DNA of 64,000 nucleotides from a virus (IMGVR_UViG_3300013901_000006:79774-143773), one strand, 5' to 3'; shown: positions 38,581 through 63,439, counted from the stretch's first letter. The notes: generated by a model not told the origin, from the letters alone. Numbers and translations: made by a program.

Positions 38581-38630
38581 AATAGCCTCAAAGTTTTTCT
38601 TGACTTTGAGGCTATTTTTTTATATACTTA
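38581..38630 (+). terminator. Intrinsic terminator whose loop carries the -35 of the next promoter
   Basis: TAGCCTCAAAGT-tttttcttgac-TTTGAGGCTA then TTTTTTT. TTGACT-17-TATACT is embedded. Confidence 0.6.
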
Positions 38631-38660
38631 TGCTAACAGAATCCAAGAGGAAGAGAGATT

Positions 38661-39044
38661 ATGGATGCAAATGTAGCAATGGTATGTGTCACGGTTATTT
38701 GCGTCGCGGCAATTATAGCTAAATGCTATATGGAACATTTGGCTGAAACTACTCGACGCATTAGGGCGAACGCACCAGAGCACCAACGCAATATCGATAA
38801 CGTTCCATACAATATGAACAATATCTGGAAGAAGAAGTAATGTTTAATATTATTTTATCATTTGCCGCAGGTTTTATAATTGGATATGCGGTGTGTTGTA
38901 TTCTTACTATTGGAAAGGATAACTAATGGCAGATTGCATTTTTGTTGCATATATCCTTGCTGTAATTGGATATGCATATTTTTCATTTAGCCGCAAATTT
39001 GAAAATATTCGATTCAATTTATATCGAATGTATCTTAATTTTTA
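38661..39044 (+). CDS. Cluster of three very small transmembrane peptide ORFs (59, 28 and 39 aa)
   Basis: MDANVAMVCVTVICVAAIIAKCY..., MFNIILSFAAGFIIGYAVCCILTIG..., MADCIFVAYILAVIGYAYFSF.... Each has a plausible RBS. Confidence 0.35.
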
Positions 39045-39538
39045 GTTGACTATTGACTTTATATAAATTATAATATAAACCAATAGAAAGAGGAATTATG
39101 CGTGATATTAATCGTATATATGATATTGTTGTAAAAATTCAAGACATGTGGGAGCACTATTCAGACCAACGTTTAGGTCAACTTATTGAAAATTATCTTG
39201 TAAAAGATGGAGAAGATTTGTTCTATATAGAAGATGAAGAACTTTCTCAACGTTTAACTGATAAACTCTCATGGATTGATTGGTAAAGATGAATATTACA
39301 GTGAAAGATTTTATTGATTGGCTTCGTATGGATACCGCTAATACCGGAAGTATGATTCGCTTTGAAGCATCAAATATTCCGTGCTTAAAGAGTCCAAGCA
39401 TATATTTTAAAGATATTGATGATAATATGACCATTGAATTAGAAAATGCATATGTACATTATTTTCATGTAGAATATAATGAAGATTATAGAATCTTTAC
39501 TTTTGTAATTTATATTTTGTAATTTATGTGGAGTTTTA

Positions 39539-40108
39539 ATGATTACTCAATATTCTCATGGTATCAATACAGAAGCAAATCCAAGCAACAATGTAATTGA
39601 TATTTATAAAAAGTGGAGCGCGGAAGAAGTGCGGGCTAGCCTTCAACCAAATCGTACTCCACTTGTAAATATTTGTCTCAATCTTGACCATGGATTCAAC
39701 GTTGGTTCTATTATTCGAGCATCAAATTGTTTCCTTGCCAAGGAGACTTACGTGGTTGGCCGCAAACGCTTTGACGCTCGTGGAGGTGTTGGATCCAAAA
39801 AATACGAACGCGTATATCATGCAGATACATTAGATGAAGTCCTTGAAGTTCTGCACCCTCTTGGATATACCATTTTTGCCGTAGATAATGTAGAAGAATA
39901 TAATCCGCAGAATATTTTTGATGTTGATATTCCAATGAAGTCTGCTTTCGTATATGGAAGTGAGGGTAATGGTTTGCCAAAAGATGCTATTGACAAATGC
40001 GATGAAATGGTATATATTAGGCAATATGGAAGTATTCGCTCACTAAATGTGGCACAAGCTGCCGCATGTTGTATGATGGAATATTCTAGACGTTATCAAA
40101 TGAGGTAG
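39539..40108 (+). CDS. SpoU/TrmH-family RNA 2'-O-methyltransferase (SPOUT)
   Basis: NICLNLDHGFNVGSIIRASNCF, YGSEGNGLPKDAI, and IRQYGSIRSLNVAQAAACCMMEY match SPOUT motifs I-III. Confidence 0.65.
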   Translation: MITQYSHGINTEANPSNNVIDIYKKWSAEEVRASLQPNRTPLVNICLNLDHGFNVGSIIRASNCFLAKETYVVGRKRFDARGGVGSKKYERVYHADTLDEVLEVLHPLGYTIFAVDNVEEYNPQNIFDVDIPMKSAFVYGSEGNGLPKDAIDKCDEMVYIRQYGSIRSLNVAQAAACCMMEYSRRYQMR

Positions 40109-40377
40109 CTATGAAATGGGAAGATTTATCACCAGAAGCAAGACTATATATTAAATTACAGCCGCATGTTTTTGCTAAGACTACGATTGCATCATTAATT
40201 GCTCTAATGGATAAATCAGTTTCTCTCCAAGAGAAAGCAAATTATATCGACCGTGCGGCAGATATTTTAAAGCTATGCGCAGTTTCAATCAAAAGCCATC
40301 CAGAGTTTGAAATTGTTATTGACAATACTCATAGTACGTAGTATTATATAAAATAAAGATAAGAAAGGATGTTTTAG

Positions 40378-40821
40378 ATGGCTGAGTTGACTAAGAGCGA
40401 CTATAGATACTTTGAAATGGCACATAGGGAAGCTGAAAAATCTACCTATGATACCTTTCATCTTGGATGCGTTCTAGTCTATAAAGGTCACATTATCGGT
40501 CGCGGAAGCAATTCCTCTAAAACTTCACCTATTCAGGCCAAATATAATCAGTTCAGGCAGTTCCGATATGGGCCGCAATTAGTAGCACATAAAAACCATG
40601 CTGAAATCAGCGCTATTAAGAGTGTACCTTATCAGGTAGATAAAGAGACTGATTGGTCAAAGGTTTCATGTTACATTTATCGTATCTCTAAGGGTCGAAA
40701 AAAGAATGTGGGTTTAGCTCGACCTTGTGAGGGATGTTTTCAGGCACTTATCGATAAAGGTATTCGTAACATCTACTATACTACAAATAATGGCTATGCG
40801 TATGAGGAAATTCTTGTATAA
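40378..40821 (+). CDS. CDA-fold deaminase (dCMP/cytidine/tRNA-adenosine deaminase family)
   Basis: HAE...PCEGC zinc-binding signature (HxE, PCxxC). Confidence 0.6.
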   Translation: MAELTKSDYRYFEMAHREAEKSTYDTFHLGCVLVYKGHIIGRGSNSSKTSPIQAKYNQFRQFRYGPQLVAHKNHAEISAIKSVPYQVDKETDWSKVSCYIYRISKGRKKNVGLARPCEGCFQALIDKGIRNIYYTTNNGYAYEEILV

Positions 40822-41311: not shown

Positions 41312-41625
41312 CTTAGTAGACTGGCAATCAGTTAGTCTACGTTATTTAAAACAGCATTTTGAAAGGATTTATTGTGAAAATTCGTGATTGGGAAGACTTC
41401 GATGAAGAGGATAACTTTGAAAAATTTTCCCATAAGACAAAACTAATTCGCCAGCGCAAAGATGATACTTACAAAAGTAAGCGTCGTGAGAAGCGTGAGC
41501 GTCAAGAATTTGAAGAAAATGCTGCGAAGGGCGGGGAGTAATTCCTGCCTTTTTTTATTATAAAAAATAGTTGCCATTTGCCGCATAATCATATATAATA
41601 TATTTACCAAAAGAAAGAGGTAAGT

Positions 41626-42561
41626 ATGAATGAAGTAGATATGCTCCGCAATGATTCTCTTGTGCGGGAAAAGGATTTGGGAAACGGAATCTCGTCTTTC
41701 AATTTTTCCAATAAGTGCTTTTGGGATAAGAAGTGGACTACGGAGTCAATCAAGGCTCGCGGATTATTCTGTGATGTTAAAAATAACAATGTTGTTGCAC
41801 GTTCTTATAATAAGTTTTTCAATATTGGAGAGCGTCCTGAGACTGAAATGCGGAATCTTCGTACTACTTTTGCATATCCTGTGCAGGCATATGTGAAGTA
41901 TAATGGTTTTTTGGCAATCGTCTCAGCAGATAAGGATAATCCCGATAAGTTGTTCATCGCATCCAAGAGCACTAATGAAGGCCAGTTTGCGGGATACATT
42001 AAAAACATTATTAACTCTATGTTGAGCGAAGATGCGCAAAAGGATTTTGCAAACACCTTGCATAATCTTAATATCTCTGCTGTGTTTGAGTGTATTGACC
42101 AAGCGCATGACACGCATATTGTAGAATATTTCAGTCCGCATTTAGTTATGCTTGATTGTATTTATAATTCCTTTGAATATAAGCACATGTCATATGAGAA
42201 TATGAGAGAATTTGCATGTAAGTTTGGTTTTTTGTTTAAGGTTCGTTTTTCCATTTTAACAGATTGGGAAGATTTTACAAGTTTTATTGATTGGCATAAG
42301 GATGATAATGGGATTGAAGGATTTGTGTTTGAAGATGCTAATGGGTTCATGGTAAAGTATAAAACTTTATGGTATCGTTACTGGAAGCAGGTGCGTGGCG
42401 TTTTGCAGCAGGTCTGGAACGGACGTGATATTGATTCAATCAAGAATATCAATAACAAGATTAAGCCAGAGCACAAGCAGCCGCTTCTTGATTTCGTAGC
42501 TTCATGCCGCAATCGTGATGCGTGTCCATCAGTAATTGAATTCCGCAACTCTTTATCTTAA
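41626..42561 (+). CDS. RNA ligase of tRNA-ligase (Trl1/KxNG) type
   Basis: Motif I VKYNGF (K-x-N-G). Motif IV IEGFVFE. Motif V VKYKTLWY. 311 aa. Confidence 0.5.
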   Translation: MNEVDMLRNDSLVREKDLGNGISSFNFSNKCFWDKKWTTESIKARGLFCDVKNNNVVARSYNKFFNIGERPETEMRNLRTTFAYPVQAYVKYNGFLAIVSADKDNPDKLFIASKSTNEGQFAGYIKNIINSMLSEDAQKDFANTLHNLNISAVFECIDQAHDTHIVEYFSPHLVMLDCIYNSFEYKHMSYENMREFACKFGFLFKVRFSILTDWEDFTSFIDWHKDDNGIEGFVFEDANGFMVKYKTLWYRYWKQVRGVLQQVWNGRDIDSIKNINNKIKPEHKQPLLDFVASCRNRDACPSVIEFRNSLS

Positions 42562-43108
42562 TTTTAGTTTGACTCTTGGTATAATATATTATATAATATA
42601 ATTGTTCCAAGAGAGGAAAGGAAGTTATATGACTGCTACTTACACTACCGCCGTTCTTCGTCTCGCCAGCTATTACGTGGACAATAAGGATGATATTACC
42701 GGAGATTATATTGATGGGGCAGTTATGACTATCAGTAATGTCTATGGGGTGCGTGACGAGCGCATTCGCCGAGACATGTATAAGATGATTGACATTTTGA
42801 TTGATGGAGAGTAAAATGCTTTCATGGAATTGGGATATTAACAATCCTATTCGGCTTGGTATGGAGGACGAGCATATGCAGGAAAGCGTTTACAAGTGTA
42901 TCCAAGAGTTCGAAAATGAATATATGGGGCATCCATCTTGTGAAGAGTTTGAAGATACCTTGGAGCGCAACGGTATTGACCCGTCTGACATGCCTAATTG
43001 CTATTGGAACGATTTAGCTCAATATCTTTAATTCTATGGGAGATTGTCTATTGACAGTCTCCCTATTTTTTTATATAATATAAAAAGTATATATTGAAAG
43101 GATGATGT

Positions 43109-43921
43109 ATGATTAAACTTGCAATTCCCTTTCAATTGAATGGAGAGTTAAATGATGATGTAAAAGAATTCAATATTCTTTTTTATAAATCTCGAAATTC
43201 AATTGAAGATTTGATTGAATTCGTTCAAGAGTATGAGGATACTCGCATTAATCTGGAATTCCCAGAAGGAATTCATATGCCGACAGTCAAATCAATTAAT
43301 AAAGTCTCTGATAATATTTATATTAAGGTTGCTCCTGCGGATATTCTTAAAGTTGTAGAGCTTAAAGAAAATAATTTTAAATTCTTTTTTAATCAAGATA
43401 TGCCGGTATCAACATACACAGCACTTGATGCCTTTTTCCGCATGGGTGTATCAGACGTATACATTGCAGATGACTTGTGCTATAATTTAACAGAAGTGCG
43501 GCAAATGTGTGAAAGTCATAACGTACAAATGCGGCTAGTCCTTAATAAGATTCCATGCACTACTTTTGACCGTGGAGTTAATCCCAAGAGTCCAATCTAT
43601 ATGCCTAAAGACTTTGAGCTTTTGGATGGATATTTTGATGTATTTGAATTTGAGTGCGGCCTACCGTATGACTGGGCTAAGTTCGATGTTCTATATCGAG
43701 CATGGTTTATCAATCATTATTGGCATGGTCAAATGAGCGAAATAAATGAAGATGTAGACCAGAATTTTCATTGTGACGCAATCCATCCTGATTTTACCCG
43801 CAATAAACTAAATTGTGAACGTAGATGCTGCAAAAGGGTGTCAAATAATTGCCGCAAATGTGAAGATTTTCTTGAGCTTGGTGAAGTATTGAAAGCTAAG
43901 AGAATTCGATTTACAAATTAA
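43109..43921 (+). CDS. Hypothetical protein with Cys-rich C-terminus
   Basis: 270 aa ORF with CERRCCKRVSNNCRKCEDF, behind a terminator-promoter cassette at 43040-43090. Confidence 0.35.
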   Translation: MIKLAIPFQLNGELNDDVKEFNILFYKSRNSIEDLIEFVQEYEDTRINLEFPEGIHMPTVKSINKVSDNIYIKVAPADILKVVELKENNFKFFFNQDMPVSTYTALDAFFRMGVSDVYIADDLCYNLTEVRQMCESHNVQMRLVLNKIPCTTFDRGVNPKSPIYMPKDFELLDGYFDVFEFECGLPYDWAKFDVLYRAWFINHYWHGQMSEINEDVDQNFHCDAIHPDFTRNKLNCERRCCKRVSNNCRKCEDFLELGEVLKAKRIRFTN

Positions 43922-44016
43922 TTGGGCAAATGATTATAAACTTTTGCCCATATTTTTTATAAATATATAAGCAATCGTCTAACTGTCGTATAGGATTTAA
44001 GGAGAATTTTATTCAA

Positions 44017-44796: not shown

Positions 44797-46023
44797 GAAA
44801 GTAGTTGACAATATTTGAAATGTTTGGTAATATATTATTGAAAGTTAAGAAGTGGGCAATTCCAGTAATTGCCGCATTAATCGTTGTGGTTGGGGGCCTA
44901 ACAGTATGGGTTAACACTACCTTCCAAGGTCAACTTTGGTTCGACAAAATGACAAATCAAAGAACTCCACCTCCTGAGAATCACTGTATCAGGGTGTATT
45001 CCGCAGGAGAGCTCGTTGGAGACTATGATGGACATTATTCTGTAGAACAATTTGATGACCACATTGTTCTTATCAATCATGATAAACATGATGATAAAAC
45101 TGAAATCTACGGTGAAACCGCAGTGATTGTAGACGAAGATTAAAAGGAGAAAATTAATGGTTGAATCTTATGGTATGAATTTTAATGCTGCACTAACGCA
45201 GGATAAAGATGGTAAGGTGTCTCTTGGTGTACACGTGACCGATTCGGACGGCCTGGATATTGACAAGAATGAATCTGGCAGCGATATTCCAAAAGTCATT
45301 GAAAATCTTTGCAGTGGTCTGATTAAAGACCTAACAGTTGTATCTAATGGCCGCAAAGCCAAAAAGGAGAAGGAAGATGCGGAGAAGCGTCGTGCGGCCA
45401 AAGCTGAGAAGCAGAAGAAGATTGCAGACCTTAAAGCACAGGCAGAAGCTCTACAAAAAGAGATTGCCGCACTGGAATCTGAAAAAACGTCCTCCACGCC
45501 CAAGACTACAGTGAGTGCTCTAGATTCACTTTCCAAGGACTTTGAATCTCTGCTGGACGATTCAACTATGAAAATTTTCCGCAAGATGCTGTTCTAAAAT
45601 TTATCTTGCAAACCCATATATAAAGTTATATAATATACTTAAAGAAAAGGAAGGAGATACAGGATGTTCGTAGGTGACAAGTTTTATAACATTGATACGG
45701 AACGCGACTTTGACGCTTGCTTGAAAGAGAACGGTTTCGACCCTGCGGAAATTAAAAACTATGCTATCTCCTTCCACGTTTCTAATCGCGCATGTTGCGT
45801 AGAAGGCCTACTTGGTGACGATTGGGCGGAAGTATCTCATGCGATTCAACAGGAGTGTGATGACTTGCGGAATGAGGTGGATAACCTTGAATCTCGTTCT
45901 CGCAAAGGCAATACTCGTGCTGACATTGCTAAACGTCTTAGCACTATTCTTGAGAATATTTATGACCTTGCTTTATCGAATCAAATTTATGACCCCGATG
46001 AACTTTAAGTAATATTTTTTTCT

Positions 46024-46052
46024 TGACAAAAAGGAAAATTAACTATATAATA
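46024..46052 (+). promoter_or_regulatory. Consensus TTGACA-17-TATAAT promoter feeding a ~100-nt transcript ending at the 46120-46165 terminator
   Basis: TTGACA aaaaggaaaattaacta TATAAT. No ORF before the downstream hairpin and T-run. Confidence 0.55.
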
Positions 46053-46119
46053 TATTTGAAATCTTTGGACAAAGATGTATAATTTTGTTGTACAACTTTT
46101 TATATTATATAGTGGTGCT

Positions 46120-46165
46120 AGAGCCTACAGTGTTCCAGAAATATTGTAGGCTCATTTTTCTTTTG
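46120..46165 (+). terminator. Intrinsic terminator (GAGCCTACA...TGTAGGCTC + TTTTTCTTTT)
   Basis: 9-bp perfect stem followed by a T-run. Confidence 0.6.
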
Positions 46166-46170
46166 GCAAA

Positions 46171-46240
46171 GCCAGTTTAGTATAACAGTAATACATCGCT
46201 CTTGTAAAGCGAAGCAGACAGGGCAGCACTGTCAACTGGC
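46171..46240 (+). tRNA. tRNA-Thr (anticodon TGT)-like gene with non-canonical D- and T-loops
   Basis: Perfect acceptor GCCAGTT/AACTGGC + TCCA. D stem GTAT/ATAC. Anticodon stem TCGCT/AGCGA with loop CTTGTAA. T stem GACAG/CTGTC, but the T loop is GGCAGCA and the D loop lacks GG. Confidence 0.45.
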
Positions 46241-46481
46241 TCCAATATTTTAGTATTCTATGAGGATAATATAAAAGGAGATTCGACCACTCCAAGCAAT
46301 GCACTTGTATTATTCTCATAGAGTGCTAACCTTAGACACTCTCCAAGTGATAGTAGAGCGGAATTTGACCCCGTCTGTGCTATCCCAAGTTATAAGCGAT
46401 TCGGGCAGTCGCTATACAAATTTGCCCACTTTAGATTATTAGATAGGCTACATAGGGAGTAGCTACCTCATGGAAAAGTGA

Positions 46482-46537
46482 ATATCCACCACCTGCCTAT
46501 CTATTGTATTTAGTGGATAGGAAAGTGTGGATATATG
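46482..46537 (+). promoter_or_regulatory. Stable hairpin sequestering the RBS and start codon of the HNH endonuclease gene
   Basis: ATATCCAC...CCTATC-loop-GATAGG-AAAGT-GTGGATAT. The 3' arm ends at the ATG (46535). SD-like AGGAAAG lies inside the 3' arm. Confidence 0.5.
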
Positions 46538-47260
46538 CTTAAATGTATTATTTGTGAAAAAGATTTTGTTATTAGACCAAATGGTAAAATGGGCGGGGCA
46601 AATCGTCAAATTTGTTATAATTGCTTGCCTGAAGATATTAGTTCAAAACAAGAAAGACGAAAAGCTACGAATTTTCTTATTAGTCAAAAGCTTCAAAAAG
46701 AAAAAACAAGTCGTGGCTGCGATATTTGTGGTTACAATAGTTGCGGAGCAGCATTAGAGTGGCATCATTATAATAGCGATAAAGATTTTAATCCAAGTGC
46801 TATTCCAGTATGCAATTGGGAAACATTGAAGAAATATCGTAAAGAAACTCAAAAATGTCAATTATTATGTGCAAATTGCCATAGAGAAATACATTATAAA
46901 AAATATTGGGGAAATTTTATTATGCCAATTGATAGTGGCCAAAGTGAAAATTTCAGAAAAGAAGTTTGTGATTATTACAAAGAAAACCTAAACATAAATA
47001 AAACTAGCGTTTATTTCCATAAAAATCGCGAAACAATTAAAAATATTCTGCTGTATTGTGGAGTTAAGATAACTAAAGAAGACAATCATAAATCTGTCAG
47101 TATGATAAATATTAAAACAAATGAAATTATTAAAACATTTTACAGTTTAAATGAAGCTAGTGATTTTTTAAATAAAGGTAAAGGTGGCATTACCCATATA
47201 TCTGATGCTTGTTCCGGGAAAAGAAAGACTGCTTACGGGTACAAATGGCGTTATGAATAA
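46535..47260 (+). CDS. HNH homing endonuclease
   Basis: Zn-ribbon CIICEK...CYNC. HNH core EWHHYNSDKDFN...CANCHREIHYKKY. Confidence 0.7.
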   Translation: MLKCIICEKDFVIRPNGKMGGANRQICYNCLPEDISSKQERRKATNFLISQKLQKEKTSRGCDICGYNSCGAALEWHHYNSDKDFNPSAIPVCNWETLKKYRKETQKCQLLCANCHREIHYKKYWGNFIMPIDSGQSENFRKEVCDYYKENLNINKTSVYFHKNRETIKNILLYCGVKITKEDNHKSVSMINIKTNEIIKTFYSLNEASDFLNKGKGGITHISDACSGKRKTAYGYKWRYE

Positions 47261-47343
47261 TATTTTTCATTTTTACTTTTAAAAATTATTTGACAAATTA
47301 TCAAATAATTTGATATAATATAGTTAACAAAAGGAGAAACACT

Positions 47344-47500
47344 TCTTTTGAACATAGGGTTCCTAAACCAAAAGAATTAGGTGCGGCTTAAGGTTTCAGA
47401 CTACAGATAAAAGAAACTTAGTGATTAAATAAATGATGCGAAAGAACGTCTGAAAAATCACGATTAAAATATGGTTTGCGGTTATCCTAAAACCGCACCT
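47344..47500 (+). ncRNA. Candidate structured small RNA (~160 nt) closed by a 10-bp long-range helix and U-tract
   Basis: UUAGGUGCGG (47374-83) pairs with CCGCACCUAA (47488-97). Internal helices UUUCAGAC/GUCUGAAA and GUGAU/AUCAC. Followed by AAAUUUUUC. Promoter at about 47293-47321. Confidence 0.4.
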
Positions 47501-47857
47501 AAAATTTTTCTTGACTTCTAGTTGAGAATAATGTACAATATATTTAGAAGAAAAGGGGGGAAAAGGATAGTCAACAGTACCATCAACAAACCAGTGACCC
47601 TGCGGCGAATATTAATGAGCCAATACCCATAAGATGTAATATCGAGTACGCTGTTAGGTTGATTAAATTTTTCTTCCAAATAAGTTTAAACGCCAAGAGA
47701 AAGAGGTAAAATGGCACAGTCTATCGAGTCTATGGAGCAGCGTTATCAGATGCTTATTAACCGAAAGGGTAAGAATTCAGAAAATGTAGGCATTATGCGC
47801 AAACTTCGCCGCAAGATTAACAAGGCTAAGTCAGGTATCATTCTTTCTTAATTTTAT

Positions 47858-47980: not shown

Positions 47981-48204
47981 GATTTCCGCATATTTTTTCT
48001 TGACTTTTGGTTATATATATTATATAATATATTTAGTTCAAAGGAGATAACATGAAATACTGCATTTGCCGTGAAAAAACTACGCATTGCCTGTCTATTC
48101 GAGTTGATACTGACTGCTCGCCTGTACGCTTTGATGTACTTTCCATTCATGACACTTTCGAAGAGGCAGATGCGGCACTTCGTTTTTATCTTGATTAATC
48201 TATT

Positions 48205-48290: not shown

Positions 48291-48291
48291 T

Positions 48292-48364: not shown

Positions 48365-48379
48365 CCTATTTTATTTCGC

Positions 48380-48465: not shown

Positions 48466-48494
48466 TTGACAAAATCATTTCGGTAGTATATAAT
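48466..48494 (+). promoter_or_regulatory. TTGACA-17-TATAAT promoter for a ~150-nt non-coding transcript
   Basis: TTGACA aaatcatttcggtagta TATAAT. No ORF until 48683. Confidence 0.5.
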
Positions 48495-48499
48495 ATAAA

Positions 48500-48655
48500 T
48501 ATAAAATAACAAGTCTTCAAGAATCTTAACTCATACGGTTTGGCCGTCGATAGAGGAACTACTAAGGACGGGACACCTGAATGCTAGCTAATACAGGGAG
48601 CAGACAGCCAGTATTGTTCTTGATGTAATCGAATGAGCTATCTTGTTGTTTTATA
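48500..48655 (+). ncRNA. Candidate structured small RNA (~150 nt)
   Basis: Ends pair (AUAACAAG / CUUGUUGUUUU) followed by a U-tract. Internal helices CCGUC/GACGG, CUCAU/AUGAG, GCUAGC. Confidence 0.35.
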
Positions 48656-49930: not shown

Positions 49931-49984
49931 ATATTTTATGACATTTTTTTTTTGCTCTCTCTTGGGCATACTTTCCGCTTTAAT

Positions 49985-50012
49985 AGGGCCTTATGGCCCT
50001 ATTTTTTTTTAT
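49985..50012 (+). terminator. Intrinsic terminator (AGGGCC-ttat-GGCCCT + T9) fused to a TTGACT promoter
   Basis: Hairpin plus T-run directly followed by TTGACT-N17-TATAAT. Confidence 0.6.
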
Positions 50013-50155
50013 TGACTTTATACATACAATATTATATAATATATATAAAGAAAGAGAAAACTCTTATAGTAGCTGTATTGCATCATGTACTAGAGGACTA
50101 TTTGATAATGCATATGGCTATTCTTGGCGATATGTATGACAAGGAGGTGGTGCCA

Positions 50156-51884: not shown

Positions 51885-51888
51885 CCAT

Positions 51889-51974: not shown

Positions 51975-52010
51975 CTGTAGGGCAACTTCTTTTGAGGTTG
52001 CCCTATTTTT
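51975..52010 (+). terminator. Intrinsic terminator after the tRNA cluster, fused to the next promoter
   Basis: TAGGGCAAC-ttcttttga-GGTTGCCCTA + T7, then TTGACT-17-TATAAT. Confidence 0.65.
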
Positions 52011-52074
52011 TTATTGACTTTTACCGCATAATCATATATAATATATATAAAGAAAGCCAAGAGAAGGAGAAAAG

Positions 52075-52557
52075 ATGGCTACTCTTTATATTCTCGCAGC
52101 TATTCCAGCCGCAGGAAAGACAACTTGGGCGCATGAGCATCATTCTGAGCTTGATGCCAAGATTATCTCGCGCGATAACATTCGTTTCAACTATATGGCA
52201 AATGACCCTGATTTTCTTCCTTCCATGGATTATTTCAAGTATGAGAAGGATGTCGAGCGATGCTTCTATGACCAGATTAATTGGGATTTGTGTGTAAATG
52301 ATATGAACGTCATCGCTGATGCCACTCATATCTCTTGGAAGAGTTTAAAGAAAACTGTTGAGCATTGCGGCAAAAACGCGGACAAGGTTATTCTTGTATA
52401 CTTCAATCGTGGTCTTGATATTGCCTTGCCGCAGAACGCGAAGCGTGATGGCGTTGAGCATGTTCCCGAGGAAGTAATCAAGCGTATGTGGAAGAACCGC
52501 TATCAGCCTGCTCGTGCAAAGGCCGCAGGTCTTGTTGATGAATATATGATTGTGTAG
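52075..52557 (+). CDS. pnk: Polynucleotide 5'-kinase (T4 Pnk kinase-domain homolog), copy 2
   Basis: [22 protein letters not shown] aligns to the T4 Pnk [38 protein letters not shown], and [12 protein letters not shown] match NRDDYRQ, ISDTNL, and VPIDVLRSMYKSM. No phosphatase domain. Confidence 0.65.
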   Translation: [160 protein letters not shown]

Positions 52558-53327: not shown

Positions 53328-54287
53328 ATGAGTCCATTCATGCAAAGGTGTTTATATATGAAATATGAAGATGGGCATACTTTTGATAGTGGCGTAAAAT
53401 TAATTAAACGATTATATAAAGATGATACTTCGCATTATACATGTCAGTTCCAGTGTCCAAGATGTGGTAATATATTTACTGCTACATTAGCAGACGTAGC
53501 TAGAGGAAGCACAAAATCATGTGGGTGTTTAAGGCGATACAATAGCCTTAAAAGGCATTTGGATGGAGTTGAACGCTATGTCGGAAAACGTTTTGGAAGA
53601 TTAACAGTTCTTTCTGCAACAGATAAAACAAATAATGCTGGAATGCTTATATATAAATGTAAGTGCGACTGCGGGAATACTTGTTGCGTTCCAAGTCAAT
53701 ATTTAGCCAGAGGAATCACAAAATCTTGCGGGTGTCTACAAGCAGAAGTAAAAAAGCAGCATGCCCCAACCAATAAAAAAGATTTAACTGGGCAAAAATT
53801 TGGTTATTTGACAGTCATTAAAGATTCTGGTAAAAGAGATGCTAATGGTACGGTGAAGTGGCAATGTAAATGTGATTGTGGGAATTATCATTTAGTAGCT
53901 ACTACAAATTTGATAAATGGAAATACTGTATCTTGCGGGTGTGTAGTGTCTTATTATGAACGATTAATAGAAGAAATTTTAAAAGAAAGTAAAATTAATT
54001 ATATAGAACAAAAACTTTTAATGGATGTATAAACCCAGAAACAGGATATAAATTAAGATTTGATTTTTATCTGCCGGACTATAATTGTTGTATAGAATAC
54101 GACGGTATACAACATTTTAAACCAGTAGAGTATTTTGGCGGTATTAAAAAATTCAAAAAAGATAAATATAGAGATGCCATAAAAGATAATTTTTGTAGTG
54201 AAAATAACATTAAACTCATTAGAATACCTTACAAAGATAAAAATCTTCTTAATAAAAAATATATTTGTGAATTATTAGATTTTTGAG
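53328..54287 (+). pseudogene. Frameshifted paralog of the 21188-21859 Zn-ribbon + DUF559 homing endonuclease
   Basis: Frame 0 carries repeated KSCGC zinc-ribbon modules and stops at 54030-32. The +2 frame continues FNGCINPETGYKLRFDFYLPDYNCCIEYDGIQHF.... The shift maps to the A-run at 54011-54015. Confidence 0.5.
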
Positions 54288-54592: not shown

Positions 54593-54620
54593 AAGGGGCC
54601 GCAAGGCTCCTTTTTTATTT
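54593..54620 (+). terminator. Intrinsic terminator (GGGGCC-gcaa-GGCTCC + T6) fused to a TTGACG promoter
   Basis: Hairpin plus T-run, followed by TTGACG-17-TATAAT. Confidence 0.55.
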
Positions 54621-54674
54621 GACGATACCCTTTCAATTTTATATAATATAAATATAGAAAAGAAAGGATGTTGT

Positions 54675-55610
54675 ATGGCAAAAGAGTACGGTTTCCGTCC
54701 TTCCACCATTGATGATTTGAAGGGTCAACCTAAGATTCAAAAAATGCTGCGAGTGTATATTAAAGCAGCTAAAATCAAAGGGGAGTCTTTTCCGCATACC
54801 ATTATCACAGGCCCCAGTGGTTGCGGCAAAAGCGCTACTGCAAATGTTATCGCACATGAGCTTGGATGCAATTTCCGTGCGTATTCCGGTCCTGCTATCA
54901 ACGATATTAAAACTATTCAGACTATTCTTCTATCTATTAAAGAGAATGATATTGTTCTGATTGATGAAGTACACCGTCTAAACAAGAAATTGCAGGAAAT
55001 GCTTTACTTTGCAATGGAGAATTTCCAAGTCGATGCTGAGATTGATGGCCAGACCGCACGTACAGACATTCCGCATTTTACCTTGGTGGCAGCTACTAAT
55101 CTTTATGGTGGATTAAATGACGCTCTTTTGAACCGTTTCCCTATTCAAATGAAACTTGCCGCATACACCCAAGATTCAATGACAGATATTGTAAATAAAA
55201 TCTGCCAAGAGAAGAATATCCAGATTGACCAGAAGAGCGCTCGAATGATTGCGGCCACCACTCGTGGTGTTCCTCGTAATGCAAACTCATACGTTGCCCG
55301 CATCTACGATTTTGCTCTTGTAATGAACGATGGCATCATCACGCCGCAAATCGTTATTGATGGCTTTGATATTATGGGTATCAACAAGTATGGTTTGAAC
55401 CAAGACGATATGGATTATCTAAACTTTCTTGCGGTACAGAGCAAAGCGGTAGGTATTGATACAATTTGTCTTACTCTTGGAGTGGATAAAAATACAGTCC
55501 AGACCAAGATTGAGCCTTATTTGTTGCAAAAAGGCTATATCCAGAAGCAACCGCGAGGTCGTGTAGCTACTGATTCTGGCCGCAAACTTTGCAAAGAAAT
55601 GGCTGAATAA
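54675..55610 (+). CDS. ruvB: RuvB-like AAA+ Holliday-junction branch-migration helicase
   Basis: Collinear with E. coli RuvB: FRPSTIDDLKGQ, YIKAAKIKGES, TGPSGCGKSATANVIAHELG, LIDEVHRL, LYFAMENF, PHFTLVAATN, C-terminal KQPRGRVAT. Confidence 0.75.
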   Translation: MAKEYGFRPSTIDDLKGQPKIQKMLRVYIKAAKIKGESFPHTIITGPSGCGKSATANVIAHELGCNFRAYSGPAINDIKTIQTILLSIKENDIVLIDEVHRLNKKLQEMLYFAMENFQVDAEIDGQTARTDIPHFTLVAATNLYGGLNDALLNRFPIQMKLAAYTQDSMTDIVNKICQEKNIQIDQKSARMIAATTRGVPRNANSYVARIYDFALVMNDGIITPQIVIDGFDIMGINKYGLNQDDMDYLNFLAVQSKAVGIDTICLTLGVDKNTVQTKIEPYLLQKGYIQKQPRGRVATDSGRKLCKEMAE

Positions 55611-57153
55611 TTTTCTTGCTCTTGGTCATAATATGTTATATAATATATTTAGAAAGAGAGAGAGGAAAACAAATGATTGGCGATAAGGTTATGGTTGAGC
55701 AAGCATACGGTATCGTATGCGGTGTAATCTCTGACATTATCTATGATGAAGATTGTGTTGTAATCACTGATACTCGTGGTTGCCGCATCGTTGCAAACTT
55801 CAATGAGATTATCGTTCTTTAGGAGATATTATGTGCAAGTATTGTGATTTCCCTGTCGATAGCAATTCCGCATACATTGATGCAACAGATACATCATGCT
55901 CTGATGGTGGATTCAGCGTAGGGCTGCATCATTCCAACTTTGCAAAAGACTGTGGATATTATATCTTTGGGGAATATTATCCATATGAAGATGAAACTAT
56001 TGACTCTGACCTTGCAAATTCCTTTTCAACACGTAATGGATATTCCCTTGCAATCAACTTTTGTCCGTTCTGTGGAAGGAAACTCAATGTCAACTAAGAT
56101 TTATACGAAGATTCTATCAGCTCTTGAAACGATTGTCTATCAAGAGGGTTGGGTACTCGGTCAATGTTGTTATAATACCAGAAGTGAATTCTATTATCGC
56201 GGATGTAAATTTGTTGTGGTTGTTTGCCCATCGGAAGGACGTGACGTTTTCAAAGTGTATTGTGAATATCATGATGGTAATGACGTAACATATAGTCAGT
56301 TTAGCCGCACATATCTTGGTGAGACTAATGGTGATACAAGCCCTATTCTTACCTTTGCAAATATGCTATTTTCTGATATGGCCCACGAGAGCCGCATCAT
56401 TCGCCGCAAGTTCGATTAATTTTTTCTTGCAATCTATGATATAATATCATATAATATATATAAAGAAAAGGAAGAGATATTAAATCTCCCAAGAGAAAGA
56501 GAAAGTATGCGCTACATGGTTGAATCTGAGCTTTATCAATTTCCCGCATGGAGTGGGGCCAAGTCTCGTCTTGACGATTTGGTAAAGCATCCTGCGGCAT
56601 ATGATATGGTTGCGGGCTACCTTGACATGTGTCAGATGGAAGGCGATGCCTGCGAGCCATGGACTGAAACTGATGTGAATGATTGGCTTTGGTTCGAACT
56701 TGACAACTATCTGTACGAAGAGGGCTTCAAGAACGAAGACGATGAGTGGATTGACGAGGATGATGACTAATGTTTAATCTTTCTATTGGCGATTATTGCA
56801 CTTATTATGGTTTCGCTGGGCAGCATTCACTCGTTAAGATTATTGCTTTTGGATGCGACTATGAATATAACGGATATGTTTGCGTTAAGTTTGTATCCAA
56901 TGGTAATGAGTGCTATGTCCCTGAGAATCAGCTTTGCAAGTATTAAGGAGTATGCATGAAGATTTATCTTATTTGGGATGGTTCGGGTATTATCGGTGGT
57001 TATTCCAGTGAGGGTAAGGCACGTAAAGCACTGAAACAGTATATCATCGACACGGGCGCATGCGAAGAGAAGGATTTTAAAGACAATATGATTGATGACC
57101 TTTCATACGGAATCATCAGTCATCCAATTGACAATCTATGGATTTAAAAAAGG

Positions 57154-57185
57154 AGGGCTTGCGGCCCTCCTTTTTATTTTTCAGA
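57154..57185 (+). terminator. Intrinsic terminator (GGAGGGC-ttgcg-GCCCTCC + T-run)
   Basis: 7-bp GC stem followed by TTTTTATTTTT. Confidence 0.6.
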
Positions 57186-58077
57186 AATCAAAAAACATAG
57201 TTGCGGCCATTGCTATCTTTTTATATAATATATATAAAGAGAAAGGAAGAATCATGAAAAACGCCAATCAGATTTTCAATACCATTGAGACTAGATGTAA
57301 TGCAACGAACTCTATGTATACTTGGTATGTCAATAATAAGGATTATGATGATGACCTTGGGGTTGTTTTTGATGTGCGGGATAAGGCCACACATGATGTC
57401 CTATGTCATTGCGGCATCTTTCCTTTTACAATGTATAGCGATGGAGAAGCATATGGCAATGTAGAGTTTAATTTATGGGATGGATTTGATTTTGTAACGT
57501 TCGATTGTGGAGATTATAAATGTGAAATCGGTAGTATTTATATGAATGATGTCATTGATATGGCGATTAATATTCTTTATCGATAATTTTTTCTTGCGGA
57601 TAGCTTTAATATATTATATAATATATATAAAGAAAAGGGAGAAAGGAACTTTCATGAAGCGCAACGATTACGTTACTTATGTTCACCCTGATACGAAGAA
57701 GGTTATTATCTGCACTGTTGAGGAAATGTACGGCGATGGTCATGTACTTCTCTACGCTGTAGATTCAAATGAAGCGTTTCTGGCTAATATGTATGAGATT
57801 GTTGAGTATTAATTTATGTTTGTCGCAAGTGATTTTATTCAAAATGGTGATATATAAAAGTATGGAATTAAATATTGACGCTAGTCTTATACAATCCCTT
57901 ATAGATAGTCAAGATGGAAAAGCATTTGACATAAGTATTCCCATTGATTCCTATCAGTTTATTGATTGTGCATCGTTGGAACTTCTAAACGATTATATTC
58001 AGTATGGCTATGACGTGTCTATCGATATGTTCAATCATACTATTGATATTAAATATAATGCTTAATGGAGCATAACT

Positions 58078-58398: not shown

Positions 58399-61163
58399 TT
58401 TTTTTCTTGCATCTGGTTTAATTATGTTATATAATATAATTAAAGAAAGAGGAAAAGGAGATTCCAAATGGCTCAGTACATGGTTGCAAACATCGCTTAC
58501 AACACCTTCTATGAGTGCGATGGGAAGTTTGCGGGAATCGTGCGGGATAAGTGCCTTTTCAAGAGTAAGGACCAGCTCCGCAGGATTCTGGATGAGGTTA
58601 AGGCTCATAAGTTGAGCAAGTACCACATGGTCTATGAGGGTTCAATTGAATCCGTTGAGCCGTTTGAGAACTAATTCAGCCAAGAGAAAGAAGAAATAAT
58701 GGATATTTACACTTACTATCACGAGACGGTTATGACGGATGCAGAGTATTATATCGATAATGAACACATCGATACTCGCGTAGATGGCTTTGATGAAGAT
58801 GCGGCTTTCGATGAAATTTTTGACGATATGTGGGCTTCTGATTGGGTGTGCGGTAATGGGTCGGAAAACGGCCATGACGATGTGCTGGTCGTTGTTTCTG
58901 CGGAAGAGATTATGAGTGGTCTTTTGGATAAGGACCTAACCGATAACATCCGCGATGCATATGGCGATGACTATTTTGGCAAGGCAATTGTGGAAAATGT
59001 TATCGGCCAAGGTACAAAGGGTGTGCGTTATCTAGACACCTTGTTCCGCACGACCACCCTTGAAGATATTATCGATGATGTTAAAGATTATTTTCTCAAG
59101 AGCATTCATAAGGAGAATTAATCATGGAAAAGTTTTTTGATGATGATACGTTGGCTAATGATTATGTCAAGAACATTGTAGACCATGCAGCGTATCGTCT
59201 CTTTGAGAACCAGCAGGATTGGCTTTATATGGTCGGTGAGCTTGGTAAAGGGCGCTGGCCGATGCTAAAAGATAATGCCGTTGATTATATCGAGCAGAAG
59301 GTTGAACAGGAATTCCATCTTCTTATTGCTTTTATCACATTTGAGCTTATCAAGATGTATCACGGGCAGGATATTGACCTTAGTGAGAATGTTGCCGCTG
59401 AATATAATGAATGGTTTGGTTATGAACCAGAAGACGAAGGATATATTGAGGGCAAGCCTGACCCTAACGGAGAGAAGGAGTAAAATACATAATGGACGAT
59501 TGTTATATGAACGCCCGCATGAACGAGCTAGCAATCAATATTGATAAGGTGCAGAAGATGGCCGTAGATACAAAGCTATCTGATATTCCATCTATCCATA
59601 AAGATGTACGTACAGCCAAGCAAATGTCACATGCCGCATATACGCTTGCAAGCTCCATCAACGAGGTTGCTTCTAAGATTCAGACAGCAAATATCGGAGG
59701 CCGCACTGTAGACGCTGATATTGACCCTGACTTTGCATATCATGTGTATCCAGCTCTTCAAAATGCATATTCGAAAGGAAAACGCCTACAAGAGCAGCGT
59801 GAGCTGAAAGTCCGCCAAGAGCATAACAAACATATGGATGGGCTTATTCGTGATGTGAAGTTTGACGGCAAGTGGACTATTATCAAATGGTCTGATGGTG
59901 ATATTACACGAGTGAAATGCTCAGATGAAGATGATAATACGCCTGCTGGTGGGTTCAATGCGGCAGTTGCCAAGCATTTCTTCCGTGGTGCATATAATAA
60001 GATTATGCATAAATGGTGTGATTAAATGCTTGATGAAGACGGAAAAGATTGGTGGCTAAATCAAGCCAAAAGAAGCGTTGAAACACTTGATGAAGATGAT
60101 TTCGATAGATTCTTGATGATGTTGGATACAGCGCCAGTAGCAGATGATATTCTGTATGATAAATTCGGTGAAACGTTAGACCTTTGGCCGCAGGAGGACG
60201 AATATGAGTCATGAGTTTGTGAGCAATTTGCGGAATATCGCCACTTTTGCCAATAGTCAAGAGGTAATTAAAGATAAAGAGACGCAAAGTGACTACATCG
60301 ATGAAATCAATCATATCATCACAAAGGCCGCACAGCGAGGAGAATTCTTCTATACATACAATGGTGTGAAAGAAGATATGGTAATGAAACTAGCTATTTA
60401 TTATGATTCTCTTGGTTTTGTTACCAGCGTGCAGAAGGATAGATATAGCGGCTCTTGGTCGCTTTACTTGAATTGGATGTAAATATGAGAGCAGAAGAAG
60501 CTAAGACTATCGCACAAATTGCCGTCCAAGAGAAGCATGAAGCTGAATTGGCTAAGATTGCGGCAAAGCGCAAGGAGATGGATGAACGGCTAGAATATTA
60601 TTGTAATAGTTTAAGCACTTTAATTGAGAATAAGGCTAAAGACGGTAACTTTGATGCGAGGTATCGCATCAATGCTGGAAATTTTGATTCAGAGCATATG
60701 ATTGAACTTTCCGCGCGTCTTGAAGACGATGGCTATGATGTTGATTATAAATTTTTTGAAAAAGGAGAGCGTCGTATTGTTGAACCGGCTCATTGGCTAC
60801 TTTCAATCTCTTGGCGATGATATGTCCGCAGACAATATGCGGAACGTGACTAAAATTGCCCTTGATAATATGAAAGCCAAAAAGAAGAAAGATGAAGAAT
60901 GGCATCAAAAGCTGATGGACAGGCGTGTGCGGCCAGTAATAAAAGTTCTCGAAGAAGAAGTTAAATGTTCGGCGAAAGATGGCAAAACCAGAATCGAGCA
61001 AGAGATTGAAGATTATTATCTAGATTTGCCGCACATGGAAAAAATCAGAGATTATTTTAATGATTTGGGCTATAATGTGATGTTATGGGATACCCATAAT
61101 GGTCCAATCAGTGCTTCTTTTAAGCCTTTAATCTACACAATCAGTATTTCATGGGAGTAAATA

Positions 61164-61403
61164 TGGGTATCGAGACTATCTTAGGAGTTGTAATTGGAAC
61201 TATTGTATGCGCTTCTCTTCTCGTTTTTCTCTTCACTGGCTGGGATGATAGCACGCTCTCAGATGATTTTTAATCTTACATGCGGCCTAGGGCTACTTAT
61301 TGGTCTATATATGGTCGTATGGGGTTTGCATGAGTTCTGGCTGATGTACCAAGAGGAAAAGAAACTAACACATCAGATGAATGGTCGGCATTGGGCTAGT
61401 TAA
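61164..61403 (+). CDS. Two overlapping very small transmembrane peptide ORFs (36 and ~47 aa)
   Basis: MGIETILGVVIGTIVCASLLVFLFTGW... (GGGAG RBS). Then MIFNLTCGLGLLIGLYMVVWGLHEFW... overlapping the first stop. Confidence 0.3.
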
Positions 61404-63049
61404 CACAATATATAGTGTGCGGCCTAGCACAATATATAGTAACACAATATATAGGGTGGGTTAATTAATAGCTCATAAGCACGCGGCTTAACCTTAAGGT
61501 TCAAGTTTAACTTGAAGGTTTGGCCGCGTTATCTTTATATATATTACCAATTATAATACTATAGCCAGTTTATTGAATAATATTAAAACGGAAACGTCGA
61601 GCTTGAATTCGGCAATTAAAAATATAAAACGTATAAGTTTACTTAAAATATAAAATAGGCCCTCTGAGTCCATTCTGTGGGCTTCCAGGGCTATATTTTC
61701 TTCTTGCTTCTGGCTATATAATATTATATAATATTATTAAAGAAAGGGAAGAAAGGAACCTGATATGGGCATGAAGTTCACTCCTGAAACCATCCAGTAC
61801 CTGTTTGATGAGAAGACCCGCGATGCCGCCAATGCAATCAACAGCGGTGAAAAGTCGTGGTTGAAAGCCAAGCCAATTGAAGCTATCGCCGCAGAAGTAA
61901 TTGAATCTGCGGAGAAGGGTGATTTTTGCGCCTATTGGGTTATTTTTAAGGGTAGCGAGAAAGAGGCTATGGAAGCTCGTAAAACGCTTGAAGAGCTTGG
62001 TATGGCTGTTGAAGACTACTACTGGCATGATGATGACGAATATGATACAGCAGGTGGCCGCATGAATGTTTACTTCTCCAACCTTCTGGTGTAAAGATAG
62101 GATTATATTATGGTGATTTGTGCGGCATATGCCAAGAGATTGAAAGATAATGAGCTTACACGATATGAGAAAAAATAGTGAATGTGCATACAATTTGCAG
62201 CATATTCAATACCGCAATAGCCTGTACTGAATGTAAAGACGATTGGCCGCTAGCTATCTCTAGGAAGAGATTCGAGCCGTATCTTTTAAGTGATGATTGG
62301 GCGTGGGTTTCTTCAAGTGTTGTGGATGTTTTTGAAGGTGCTGGATATGATGTTGTAAAGAAGCAAGATAAAATCGTCGTGGACATACATACCCGCTAAA
62401 AGTAAATTCAATTATGAGATGGTATACTGATATGATTTGGACTGATAATATATATAATATTATTGATGATATTATTCCAGAAGTGCGCAAAAATTTACGT
62501 AATCCTCAAAGCGGAAATTATGTGATACGAACAGCTTATAAAAATATGACATTTCAAGAATGCCAAGAGGTTGTTAAGTATTTTCAAGAAAAAGGTTTTG
62601 AATCTATTTGGTATTCAAAAGAGAATGAGCAGCCTATTATCGTAATAAGTTGGGGTTTGCCATACGATATTGATAACATTGATAATATATCTAAATATGA
62701 AATTGAAAATGCCGGTAGTAAGTGGCATCAAATTGTAAAACTACTTGCCGCATATATCAATTATGTATTTTTGTAGTTTTAAAAGTGTTTGTGTTATTCC
62801 CATTGAACATTTGAAATATATTTTGGGCATTGAGAACTTTTCTTATGAAATTTTTATGGCTGCTTCTGACGAATTGAAACAATATTATTCATTAAAATTT
62901 CATTTCGGTTCTTTAGATGACGATGGCTTGAAAAATGATTATATTTTTATTCAGAGAATTGAGAATAGTATGTGCAAAATAAAAAATTGACTGAGATAAA
63001 AATCATAATTGGTATGCCAAGAGAAGAAAAAAGAATAGAAAATGATGAT

Positions 63050-63090
63050 AAACCCGTGCGGCGAATGCCGTGCGGGTTTTTATATAGATG
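63050..63090 (+). terminator. Strong intrinsic terminator (13-bp stem AAACCCGUGCGGC...GCCGUGCGGGUUU + U-run)
   Basis: Long GC-rich hairpin followed by TTTTATAT. Confidence 0.55.
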
Positions 63091-63439
63091 TATGAAAAAG
63101 TTGTGCAAGAGAGTGTAATTTATTCTATGTACTTTTTTGTATATAATGTATAAGATGTATGTAATAAAGATAGGAGAAAAGAATGAATAAACATGTAAAC
63201 ATCGGTATGCCGCAGGAGAAATATGATGAATGGTTTGCGGCGATGCTCACTATGGGATATAGCGATTTTACGCAATTCGTGCGTGATGCTATTCAAGAGA
63301 AAGTGGATAGGAACGCTGTAACTGGATTAACGGTTTTGTCTGCGTTAAAAAGTTAACGGTCTTGTGTGCATTTTGATTATTGTGGCAATCTTATAATTAT
63401 AAAACTCTTGTGGTTACGAAAATAACGGTACAATTCGTT

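Follow-up and report, generated by a model that had tools for sequence, protein, structure and literature searches.

Predicted housekeeping-sigma promoters, about one third of them fused to intrinsic terminators, punctuate the two gene arms of an uncultivated large phage

Introduction

The closest described counterparts of the elements analysed here are the PeSL elements of the phages RB49/phi1, PST/T4 and nt-1/KVP40 (Arbiol et al. 2010, PMC2839356; Comeau et al. 2014, PMC4122927), in which a stop codon is followed by an AT-rich tract, a stem-loop terminator, a near-perfect TTGACA-N17-TATAAT promoter, a Shine-Dalgarno (SD) sequence and a start codon. Their stem-loops lie upstream of the -35 hexamer or overlap it, and the elements are enriched among small ORFans (PMC2839356, PMC4122927). 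A sub-class with a TGC-type box is represented by the PmSL elements of phage nt-1 and by the KVP40-type early promoters, which carry TTGYVH (PMC4122927), and PeSL-mediated shuffling together with mini-circles has been documented in RB49/phi1 (PMC2839356). Here we describe terminator-promoter cassettes in a 64,000-nucleotide stretch (hereafter the window) of the uncultivated viral contig IMGVR_UViG_3300013901_000006, positions 79774-143773.

Two further systems provide points of reference. Early sigma-A promoters of the P100-like Listeria phage CKA15 and similar phages display TTGACT boxes, conservation past the -10 hexamer and AT-rich upstream tracts (PMC12282133). The MotA box, (a/t)(a/t)(a/t)TGCTT(t/c)A, is centred at -30, ~12 bp from the -10 (cf. 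PMC4122927).

Results

Promoters follow the coding strand

Gene orientation in the window switches from minus to plus at ~36.6 kb, and the GC skew flips sign at the same place. Across the whole window the pattern TTGACW-N16-18-TATAAT has 26 exact matches compared with 0.27 expected, all of them co-oriented with the genes (minus strand below ~36.6 kb, plus strand above). With an iterated position weight matrix (PWM) and a threshold of 18 bits, ~41 sites were found on the coding strand, whereas 20 shuffled sequences yielded none; the spacer is 17 nt at 34 of the 41 sites. These counts bear out the TTGAC(A/T) and TATAAT boxes on both strands, and the 17-nt spacing, that had been proposed in a first-pass annotation made by a model from the sequence alone. 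Mirror matches of the PWM on the opposite strand were rejected as artefacts because the promoter core ATATTATATAATAT is self-complementary. Sites with a TTGACW hexamer, here termed class I, have T-rich positions ahead of the -35; a second family, class II, is described below.

Promoter density differs between the arms, with 22 sites in 24.5 kb of the ORFan-rich plus arm versus 17 in the 36.6-kb replication arm. The 22 sites, between 38581 and 63100, serve ~46-55 protein genes and 8 tRNAs, and transcription units therefore average 2-3 genes. The proposal that cassettes separate nearly every small gene in this range is thus not upheld. Likewise, describing each gene as an insulated unit was too strong, as a terminator is absent from two thirds of the promoters and the typical unit comprises 2-6 genes.

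Terminator hairpins adopt two geometries

A strong fused hairpin with a T-run (predicted folding energy, dG, of -12 or lower) was found at ~14 promoters in the window, eight of them in 38581-63100, which is fewer than the more than 20 shared GC hairpins first claimed; every individual coordinate cited for that claim does carry a hairpin, a T-run and a promoter. The fused hairpins (14 of ~41 promoters) range from dG -12.8 to -21.1 and are followed by a U-tract. Terminator-like hairpins number 27 on the coding strand versus 12 on the opposite strand. Strong coding-strand terminators are usually joined to a promoter (14 of ~19), but the converse fails, since two thirds of the promoters stand without one. 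The hairpins show the features of intrinsic terminators: GC-containing stems, loops of 3-9 nt, an immediate U-tract, location on the transcribed strand and placement at gene ends. Their prediction as such terminators, joined to promoters for a housekeeping sigma and to strong ribosome-binding sites (RBS), agrees with the sequence, the strand logic and the conservation in relatives.

In geometry A the stem ends 6-8 nt ahead of the -35, so that the U-tract, TTTTT(T)AT, doubles as the T-tract found ahead of most class I -35 hexamers. Four cassettes of this type lie on the minus strand. The one at 18-112 consists of hairpin 85-112 (dG -17.8), a T-run, -35 TTGACT (72-77), -10 TATAAT (49-54), the leader ATAAATATAAAGAAGAGAAAGG and an ATG at ~20. 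At 17897-17991, hairpin 17959-17991 (dG -19.9) is separated by 6 nt from -35 TTGACA (17947-17952), with the -10 at 17924-17929. The cassette at 29414-29509, which precedes the gene for the topoisomerase II large subunit, has hairpin 29478-29509 (dG -19.8), -35 29466-29471 and -10 29443-29448, and that at 30792-30873 has hairpin 30854-30873 (dG -13.6), -35 30841-30846 and -10 30818-30823. On the plus strand, cassette 49982-50104 combines hairpin 49982-50003 (dG -14.7) and -35 TTGACT (50012-50017) with a -10 at 50035-50040 that is followed by ATATATAAAGAAAG; no clear open reading frame (ORF) is present for ~150 nt downstream. Cassette 51977-52077 directly follows tRNA-Phe, with hairpin 51977-52006 (dG -21.1), -35 52014-52019, -10 52037-52042, the word CCAAGAG in the leader and an ATG at 52075. 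Cassette 54593-54677, ahead of the clamp-loader gene, has hairpin 54593-54612 (dG -12.8), -35 TTGACG (54619-54624) and -10 54642-54647.

In geometry B the -35 lies in the loop or the 3' arm of the hairpin and the U-tract falls within the promoter spacer. The first-pass annotation had placed a -35 within the hairpin at 38600 and 43050; we confirm both (the second at 43051) and find the same arrangement at 11313 and 35159 on the minus strand. Cassette 11250-11334 (minus) has hairpin 11305-11334 (dG -15.3) around -35 TTGACT (11313-11318), a T-run in the spacer and a -10 at 11290-11295, and in cassette 35111-35182 (minus) the 3' arm of hairpin 35154-35182 (dG -15.1) is itself the -35 TTGACA (35159-35164), with -10 TAATAT at 35136-35141. 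On the plus strand, cassette 38581-38663 folds hairpin 38581-38616 (dG -21.1) around -35 TTGACT (38600-38605), with the T-run in the spacer, -10 TATACT at 38623-38628 and an ATG at 38661. Cassette 43038-43111 (plus) places -35 TTGACA (43051-43056) in the loop and 3' arm of hairpin 43038-43063 (dG -18.7), followed by a -10 at 43074-43079 and an ATG at 43109.

Three cassettes with class II promoters, all on the plus strand, are looser, with gaps of 11-26 nt between hairpin and promoter. At 41526-41628, terminator 41526-41553 (dG -16.3) lies 17 nt ahead of a promoter with -35 TTGCCA (41571-41576) and -10 41594-41599, and the ATG of an RNA ligase gene is at 41626. At 57148-57256, a bidirectional-looking terminator (57148-57174, dG -18.3) is followed after 26 nt by -35 TTGCGG (57201-57206), -10 57224-57229, ATATATAAAG and an ATG at 57254. 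At 61658-61767, a terminator-like hairpin (61658-61692, dG -19.2) is followed after 11 nt by -35 TTGCTT (61704-61709), -10 61727-61732 and an ATG at 61765. Stem sequences differ among all cassettes.

Conservation extends beyond the -10 hexamer

The first-pass annotation had also described an AT box downstream of the -10, conserved beyond the needs of sigma70, with TATAATATATATAAAG as its literal form. To keep the estimate free of selection bias, sites were chosen on the two hexamers only and orthologous copies were down-weighted (effective n=63 and 42). Under this scheme the conservation is real: TATAAT is followed by A (.82), T (.80), A (.74), w, w, T (.79) and A (.80) and then by a purine-rich run, and the hexamer is preceded by the consensus T-A-T-(T/G)-A. 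As a literal string, TATAATATATATAAAG occurs exactly only five times; its enrichment is seen at up to two mismatches (14 sites versus 0.45 expected), four of the 14 being minus-strand matches inside the plus-strand arm, that is, on the non-coding strand. The distance from the start of the -10 to the ATG is 28-39 nt at most sites, with an AAAGGAG-type SD.

Most of the AT box maps onto known promoter parts. We take TAT(G/T) ahead of the -10 to be the Gram-positive -16 'TRTG' region and the ATA behind it to be an AT-rich discriminator, while the conserved T-A, 6-7 nt past the hexamer, presumably marks a pyrimidine(-1)/purine(+1) start at the seventh nucleotide, which is consistent with, though indirect evidence for, the usual initiation 6-8 nt beyond a -10. 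The sequence AAAGAAAGGAG would, on our assumption, pair as an extended SD with a 16S rRNA tail of the CCUCCUUUCU type. Since the downstream box fits conventional promoter parts, a dedicated phage factor is not required to explain it.

Such a factor, whether an activator, a repressor or a sigma-remodelling protein, might nevertheless bind the ATATTATATAATAT core, or the tTC-TTGC...G box of class II, and set a second temporal class in the manner of MotA/AsiA or PmSL; we consider this unlikely. In its favour, the -10 core is a perfect 14-bp palindrome, as is plain from the sequence and from the mirror PWM matches. This symmetry is, however, near-automatic when TATAAT is preceded by 'TATTA' and followed by 'AT', and it ends at +/-7. 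A palindromic operator at the -10 core was accordingly judged unlikely, the symmetry arising from the TRTG-like region, TATAAT and AT.

A second promoter class occupies the distal plus arm

A repeat finder and the PWM census both revealed the second promoter family, in which the -35 reads TTGCnn (tTC-TTGC) instead of TTGACW. After dereplication, class II retains positions of its own: an A-tract near -44, T at -38, C at -36 (0.74 versus 0.26 in class I) and a spacer G (0.69 versus 0.25), with a stronger start region, TAaAgAAAG. Its window members comprise one minus-strand site (36169), two isolated plus-strand sites (41594 and 45629) and a contiguous block from 55.6 to 61.7 kb.

The hairpin-free class II promoter at 36131-36192 (minus), ahead of the RNA ligase gene 35195-36133, has TTGCAA and a TGn extended -10, and that at 45606-45666 (plus), likewise hairpin-free, reads tatC-TTGCAA-N17-TATAAT-ATACTTAAAGAAAAGG. 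The block opens at 55616-55675 (plus) with ttC-TTGCTC and CTTGG in the spacer, and continues on the same strand with 56427-56509 (ttC-TTGCAA ... TATAATATATATAAAG, a 57-nt leader containing CCAAGAG, ATG at 56507), 57594-57656 (ttC-TTGCGG ... TATAATATATATAAAGAAAAGGGAG) and 58407-58470 (ttC-TTGCAT-CTGG ... TATAATATAATTAAAGAAAG). In the window and in its relatives alike, class I precedes the clamp-loader gene and class II follows it, occupying the distal ~20 kb of the arm.

Both the class-specific bases, at A ~-44, T -38, C -36 and the spacer G, and the parallel segregation of the two classes in window and relatives speak for the phage-encoded factor introduced above, for which PmSL-type elements in phage nt-1 and the TTGYVH early promoters of KVP40 would be precedents (PMC4122927). 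Against it, TTGC occupies a normal -35 position with a 17-bp spacer, and TGCTT is present in one of nine window sites; on the same two counts a MotA-box reading of class II was rejected. The upstream A-tract could also act like an UP element and so compensate for the weak -35. Among the ~40 window proteins scanned, none was recognisable as a transcription factor, and MotA/AsiA homologues gave no match among them in PHROGs/Pfam, a scan outside which lie many small ORFs and half of the genome. Class II could be either a promoter with a weak -35 offset by the A-tract or a factor-dependent class, and host RNA polymerase alone may not fully explain it. The more ambitious proposal of two regulons, with class I read by unmodified host sigma-A polymerase and class II through a phage-made specificity factor, would amount to an independent invention of T4-style sigma appropriation and is quite unlikely. 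Were it true, sigma appropriation would occur together with terminator-fused promoters in an uncultivated phage clade, probably one of gut Clostridia.

Related contigs preserve the cassette design

A related clade of ~140-kb contigs, whose clamp loader is 72% identical in amino-acid sequence, bears the same promoter motif, always on the coding strand. An exact 20-mer scan of viral contigs gave matches in close relatives mostly within the same orthologous region, and thus gave no genome-wide distribution. At the clamp-loader gene, the geometry of hairpin, T-run and promoter is kept in all relatives with a stem sequence unrelated to that of the window. When orthologous hairpins are compared, pairing survives 28 of the stem substitutions (11 being double) and is lost through 23, and stems accumulate 0.18 changes per site compared with 0.26 at unpaired hairpin positions; together these figures provide moderate evidence of selection on structure. 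The two geometries of the window also predominate among the strong fused hairpins of the clade (n=57), of which 31 lie upstream of the -35 and 13 overlap it.

In the relatives, extended-motif promoters run ~13 kb past the clamp loader and then end, with 0-2 per relative in the following ~15 kb. A walk along one relative contig placed a small module of convergent genes and a weak match to a terminase in this promoter-poor stretch. Such a distribution fits, but does not prove, a programme in which early genes are expressed via host sigma and later genes via a phage factor.

In the same stretch, relatives also encode a 362-aa protein (L162:4955-6043, minus strand, IMGVR_UViG_3300045988_089790) labelled 'sigma factor' in PHROGs (phrog_5767, E 2e-41). 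This label, and a motif that exceeds a minimal sigma-70 promoter, could suggest that a phage-encoded sigma factor or RNA polymerase, rather than the host housekeeping holoenzyme, reads the promoters. We regard this as highly improbable: the hexamers and 17-bp spacing are the exact housekeeping consensus, searches of Pfam, NCBIfam and PDB sequences lend the label no support, and the promoter-rich region does not include the gene. Because the gene is itself preceded by a promoter of the TTGC...TATAAT type, the protein would be a product of these promoters and not their reader. Near this gene lies a strikingly GC-rich, foreign-looking ORF of 126 aa (L162:7010-7390, minus strand).

Cassettes and gene shuffling

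The plus arm is ORFan-rich and highly mosaic among relatives, which have 65-98% of its sequence in common at 83-100% identity. Some cassette sub-families share spacer sequence with no evident function (TTGACT-CTTGG..., D1/D2/D5/D8). Together with the shuffling and mini-circles known from RB49/phi1 (PMC2839356), these observations raise the alternative that the cassettes are mobile or recombinogenic modules, PeSLs in the strict sense, with homologous recombination between them shuffling the small ORFs that they flank and gene conversion maintaining similarity. An all-pairs breakpoint analysis was too noisy (1035 'breakpoints' resulting from divergence) and was replaced by sharp events only, in one region of ~20 kb, a small sample. 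Three sharp breakpoints do lie at cassettes, each 26-46 nt from a -10, but they are three of 28. Junctions bearing a cassette were not enriched as breakpoints (odds ratio ~1, and 0.5 among spacers of at least 60 nt), and the hairpin stems, all different in sequence, also argue against this alternative. Cassette-mediated gene shuffling thus left no sign in the ~20-kb sample, and mobile modules are a distinctly improbable explanation.

Gene content and probable host

The window, which matches most of the 71.7-kb IMG/VR contig 3300014039_000031, is 35% GC and has no relative at the nucleotide level by megablast of 12 kb against a phage collection (50,697 phage records). Its minus-strand arm holds replication and nucleotide-metabolism genes: PolIII-alpha (with an apparent intein), a DnaB-like helicase, a Toprim primase, both topoisomerase II subunits, DNA ligase, a RecJ-like exonuclease, a Sak4-like protein and NrdD, split by a group I intron. 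Topoisomerase II reaches at most 35% identity anywhere in the phage collection. The plus arm encodes 8 tRNAs, RNA ligase, a SpoU methylase, dCMP deaminase, the clamp loader and HNH endonucleases, the remaining genes being mostly small ORFans. The best explanation is that the window is the early/replication part of a large lytic phage, with arms diverging from a hub at ~36.4 kb.

The closest cellular homologues of NrdD (44-49% identity) come nearly all from metagenome-assembled genomes (MAGs) of gut Clostridia. These neighbours and the AGAAAGGAGG-type RBS point weakly to a Bacillota host, probably Clostridia-like bacteria of the gut.

The PolIII-alpha-type replicase (1702 aa, 5727-10835, minus) has an apparent intein at residues ~635-929, for which the Pfam Intein_splicing match scores under the gathering cut-off. 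The nrdD gene for anaerobic ribonucleotide reductase (993-3567, minus) is split, as in phage T4, by a group I intron (750-1078, minus; Rfam RF00028, 56 bits), and this intron includes a site resembling a consensus promoter (916-945). Homing endonucleases are encoded by free-standing genes, two of the GIY-YIG and two of the HNH type, at 21846-22718 and 26755-27711 (minus) and at 46535-47260 and 53328-54032 (plus), between or within conserved genes, consistent with the mosaicism among relatives. The eighth tRNA-like gene (46171-46241, plus; Rfam 44.9 bits) was missed by ARAGORN.

Further class I promoters and the divergent hub

The remaining class I promoters are spread over both arms. On the plus strand, the promoter at 39046-39100, which has no hairpin, leads to an ATG at 39098, and that at 40319-40380, with -10 TATTAT, overlaps the end of the upstream gene and precedes the ATG (40378) of the dCMP deaminase gene. 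The promoter at 42569-42631 has CTCTTGG after the -35 and the complement, CCAAGAG, in the leader. Others are associated with the tRNA island. At 46023-46160, a promoter (-10 at 46046-46051) is followed ~70 nt further on by a terminator (46121-46153) with no ORF between, possibly producing an RNA of ~100 nt just upstream of a tRNA. Two promoters (47290-47551; -10 at 47314 and 47534) lie in a non-coding stretch of the island, one (48000-48054; TTGACT-TTTGG ... TATAATATATTTAG) precedes a 48-aa ORF and tRNA-Lys/Asn, and another (48466-48506) comes right after tRNA-Asn. A further site, at 51112-51176, reads TTGACT-CTTGGG ... TATAATATAATTAAAG.

On the minus strand, class I promoters without a hairpin lie at 20357-20431 and at 23021-23085, the latter reading TGG-TATAAT-ACTTATAAAG, and the one at 33676-33730 has an 18-nt spacer. 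At 5640-5721 (minus), after the PolIII-alpha gene, the order of parts is the inverse of that in other cassettes, with a promoter (5693-5721) upstream of a terminator hairpin (5660-5694) and no ORF between them.

Where the arms diverge, a promoter hub (36331-36696) has minus-strand -10 hexamers at 36343-36348 and 36557-36562 and a plus-strand promoter with its -35 at 36633 and its -10 at 36656. The surrounding spacer, 36134-36693, comprises 560 bp of very AT-rich sequence with at least four promoter-like sites on both strands and small hairpins at 36227-36251, 36288-36308 and 36523-36541. This spacer could serve as a replication origin, as a hub of early promoters with small RNAs, or as both.

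Over-represented words and a repeat array

Two short asymmetric words are strongly over-represented (8-10-fold) on both strands of the window. GCCGCA/TGCGGC has 157 copies versus ~18 expected, about one every 400 bp, and CCAAGAG/CTCTTGG has 75 versus ~8 (e.g. 36879, 42607, 52057, 56489). Both are mostly intragenic; GCCGCA falls in all reading frames without orientation bias, and CCAAGAG favours the gene direction 47:28. Local enrichment is seen around promoters, reaching ~10-fold for CCAAGAG within the leaders of cassettes and ~3.5-fold for CCGCA immediately ahead of the -35, and both words are still dense where promoters are absent. The enrichment is common to relatives (L002-L016, L162), among which 66-74% of word sites are kept compared with 44-48% for arbitrary words. 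In candidate host-lineage Clostridia loci the words are enriched just 1.4-1.8-fold, which is weak evidence on whether they are a property of the host lineage. A literature search on the two words found nothing relevant. Possible roles include those of a Chi-like signal, a target for modification or nicking, and a binding site.

The non-coding stretch 63340-63690, between a 57-aa ORF (63183-63356) and a gene starting at 63699, contains five copies of AAAAAACTGCACCA, most of them after AAAAAGGTYA, and two copies of AACCGCAGGTAAAWTTRGTGCA. These repeats look like iterons or an operator array.

Discussion

Motif statistics, strand logic, hairpin geometry and conservation in relatives support a model in which host housekeeping-sigma promoters, about one third of them fused to intrinsic terminators, punctuate both early arms of this phage in a PeSL-like design. 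We assign this reading a probability of roughly 80%. Each promoter would consist of a T- or A-rich tract, a -35 of the form TTGACW or TTGCnn, 17 bp of AT-rich spacer with TAT(T/G)A at its end, and TATAAT, followed by the discriminator ATA, a start at T(-1)A(+1) 7 nt past the hexamer and a purine-rich leader of 16-27 nt that would act as an extended SD. A host sigma-70-family holoenzyme would read these promoters. The initial suggestion of reading by host sigma70 RNA polymerase agrees with the sequence, the strand logic and the conservation, and is more exactly worded as probably sigma-A of Bacillota. Where a terminator is fused, it would halt incoming transcription a few bases before a fresh initiation site. 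The expected outcome is a chain of short units of 1-6 genes each, some insulated and most additive.

Several points weigh against this model. Insulation is only partial, because two thirds of the promoters have no terminator. Class II combines a poor -35 (TTGC), a general lack of the TG extension and class-specific conserved bases. A few PWM or regular-expression matches are intragenic (916-945, 13289-13318, 37340-37368), and these sites may have no function. Where transcripts would start, how efficiently they would terminate and when they would be made are all deduced from sequence, and the evidence for the identity of the host is weak.

The cassettes do not overturn current understanding. 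They do supply a model of promoters and terminators that can be applied at once, and with high confidence, throughout a clade of ~140-kb uncultivated phages. For annotation, the model defines putative early transcription units, flags probable non-coding RNAs and supports a Bacillota-type host. For engineering in Gram-positive hosts, candidate insulator parts are offered by the terminator-promoter fusions, which occupy a compact 60-100 bp and in some versions enclose the -35 within the terminator.

Comparison with large Firmicutes phages, namely the host-takeover module of SPO1 and CKA15 (PMC12282133), reveals many shared traits: numerous short early units, TTGACT-type -35 hexamers, an extended -10 (TG/TRTG), AT-rich upstream tracts and a strong SD. 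In phages of the SPO1/CKA15 type, later genes are read with phage-encoded sigma or anti-sigma factors. In contrast to those phages, to which no sequence relationship was detected, the promoters here span both arms, replication genes included, and terminators are fused to promoters at fixed spacing, a feature not described for SPO1/CKA15-type phages in the literature examined. Class II resembles T4 middle promoters in pairing a canonical -10 with a non-canonical, TGC-containing upstream element and in clustering in one part of the genome, but its TTGC sits in the normal -35 position with a 17-bp spacer, whereas the MotA box is centred at -30.

The resemblance to PeSLs covers more of the design. 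It includes near-consensus sigma-70 promoters with an upstream AT-rich tract (26 exact versus 0.27 expected), a stable stem-loop, predicted to terminate transcription, adjoining or overlapping the promoter at 14 of ~41 sites, an SD and start codon at the 3' end of most elements, a preference for the region of small, variable ORFans (22 in 24.5 kb versus 17 in 36.6 kb) and a second sub-class with a TGC-containing upstream box. Differences are also clear. In RB49 the PeSL stem-loops mostly lie between -35 and -10, or over the latter, whereas here two geometries only are seen, with clean U-tracts; unlike in PeSLs, sequence past the -10 is also conserved. Strict membership fails because this phage, whose replicase is a PolIII-alpha carrying an apparent intein and whose nucleotide sequence resembles that of no known phage, is not T4-like, and because indel and replacement junctions between relatives do not prefer the cassettes (3/28). 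As judged from sequence, the cassettes are analogues of PeSLs and not homologues. The PeSL design would then have arisen outside T4-like phages, untied in this sample from cassette-mediated shuffling, which suggests that it is a general answer to the need to express numerous small early genes.

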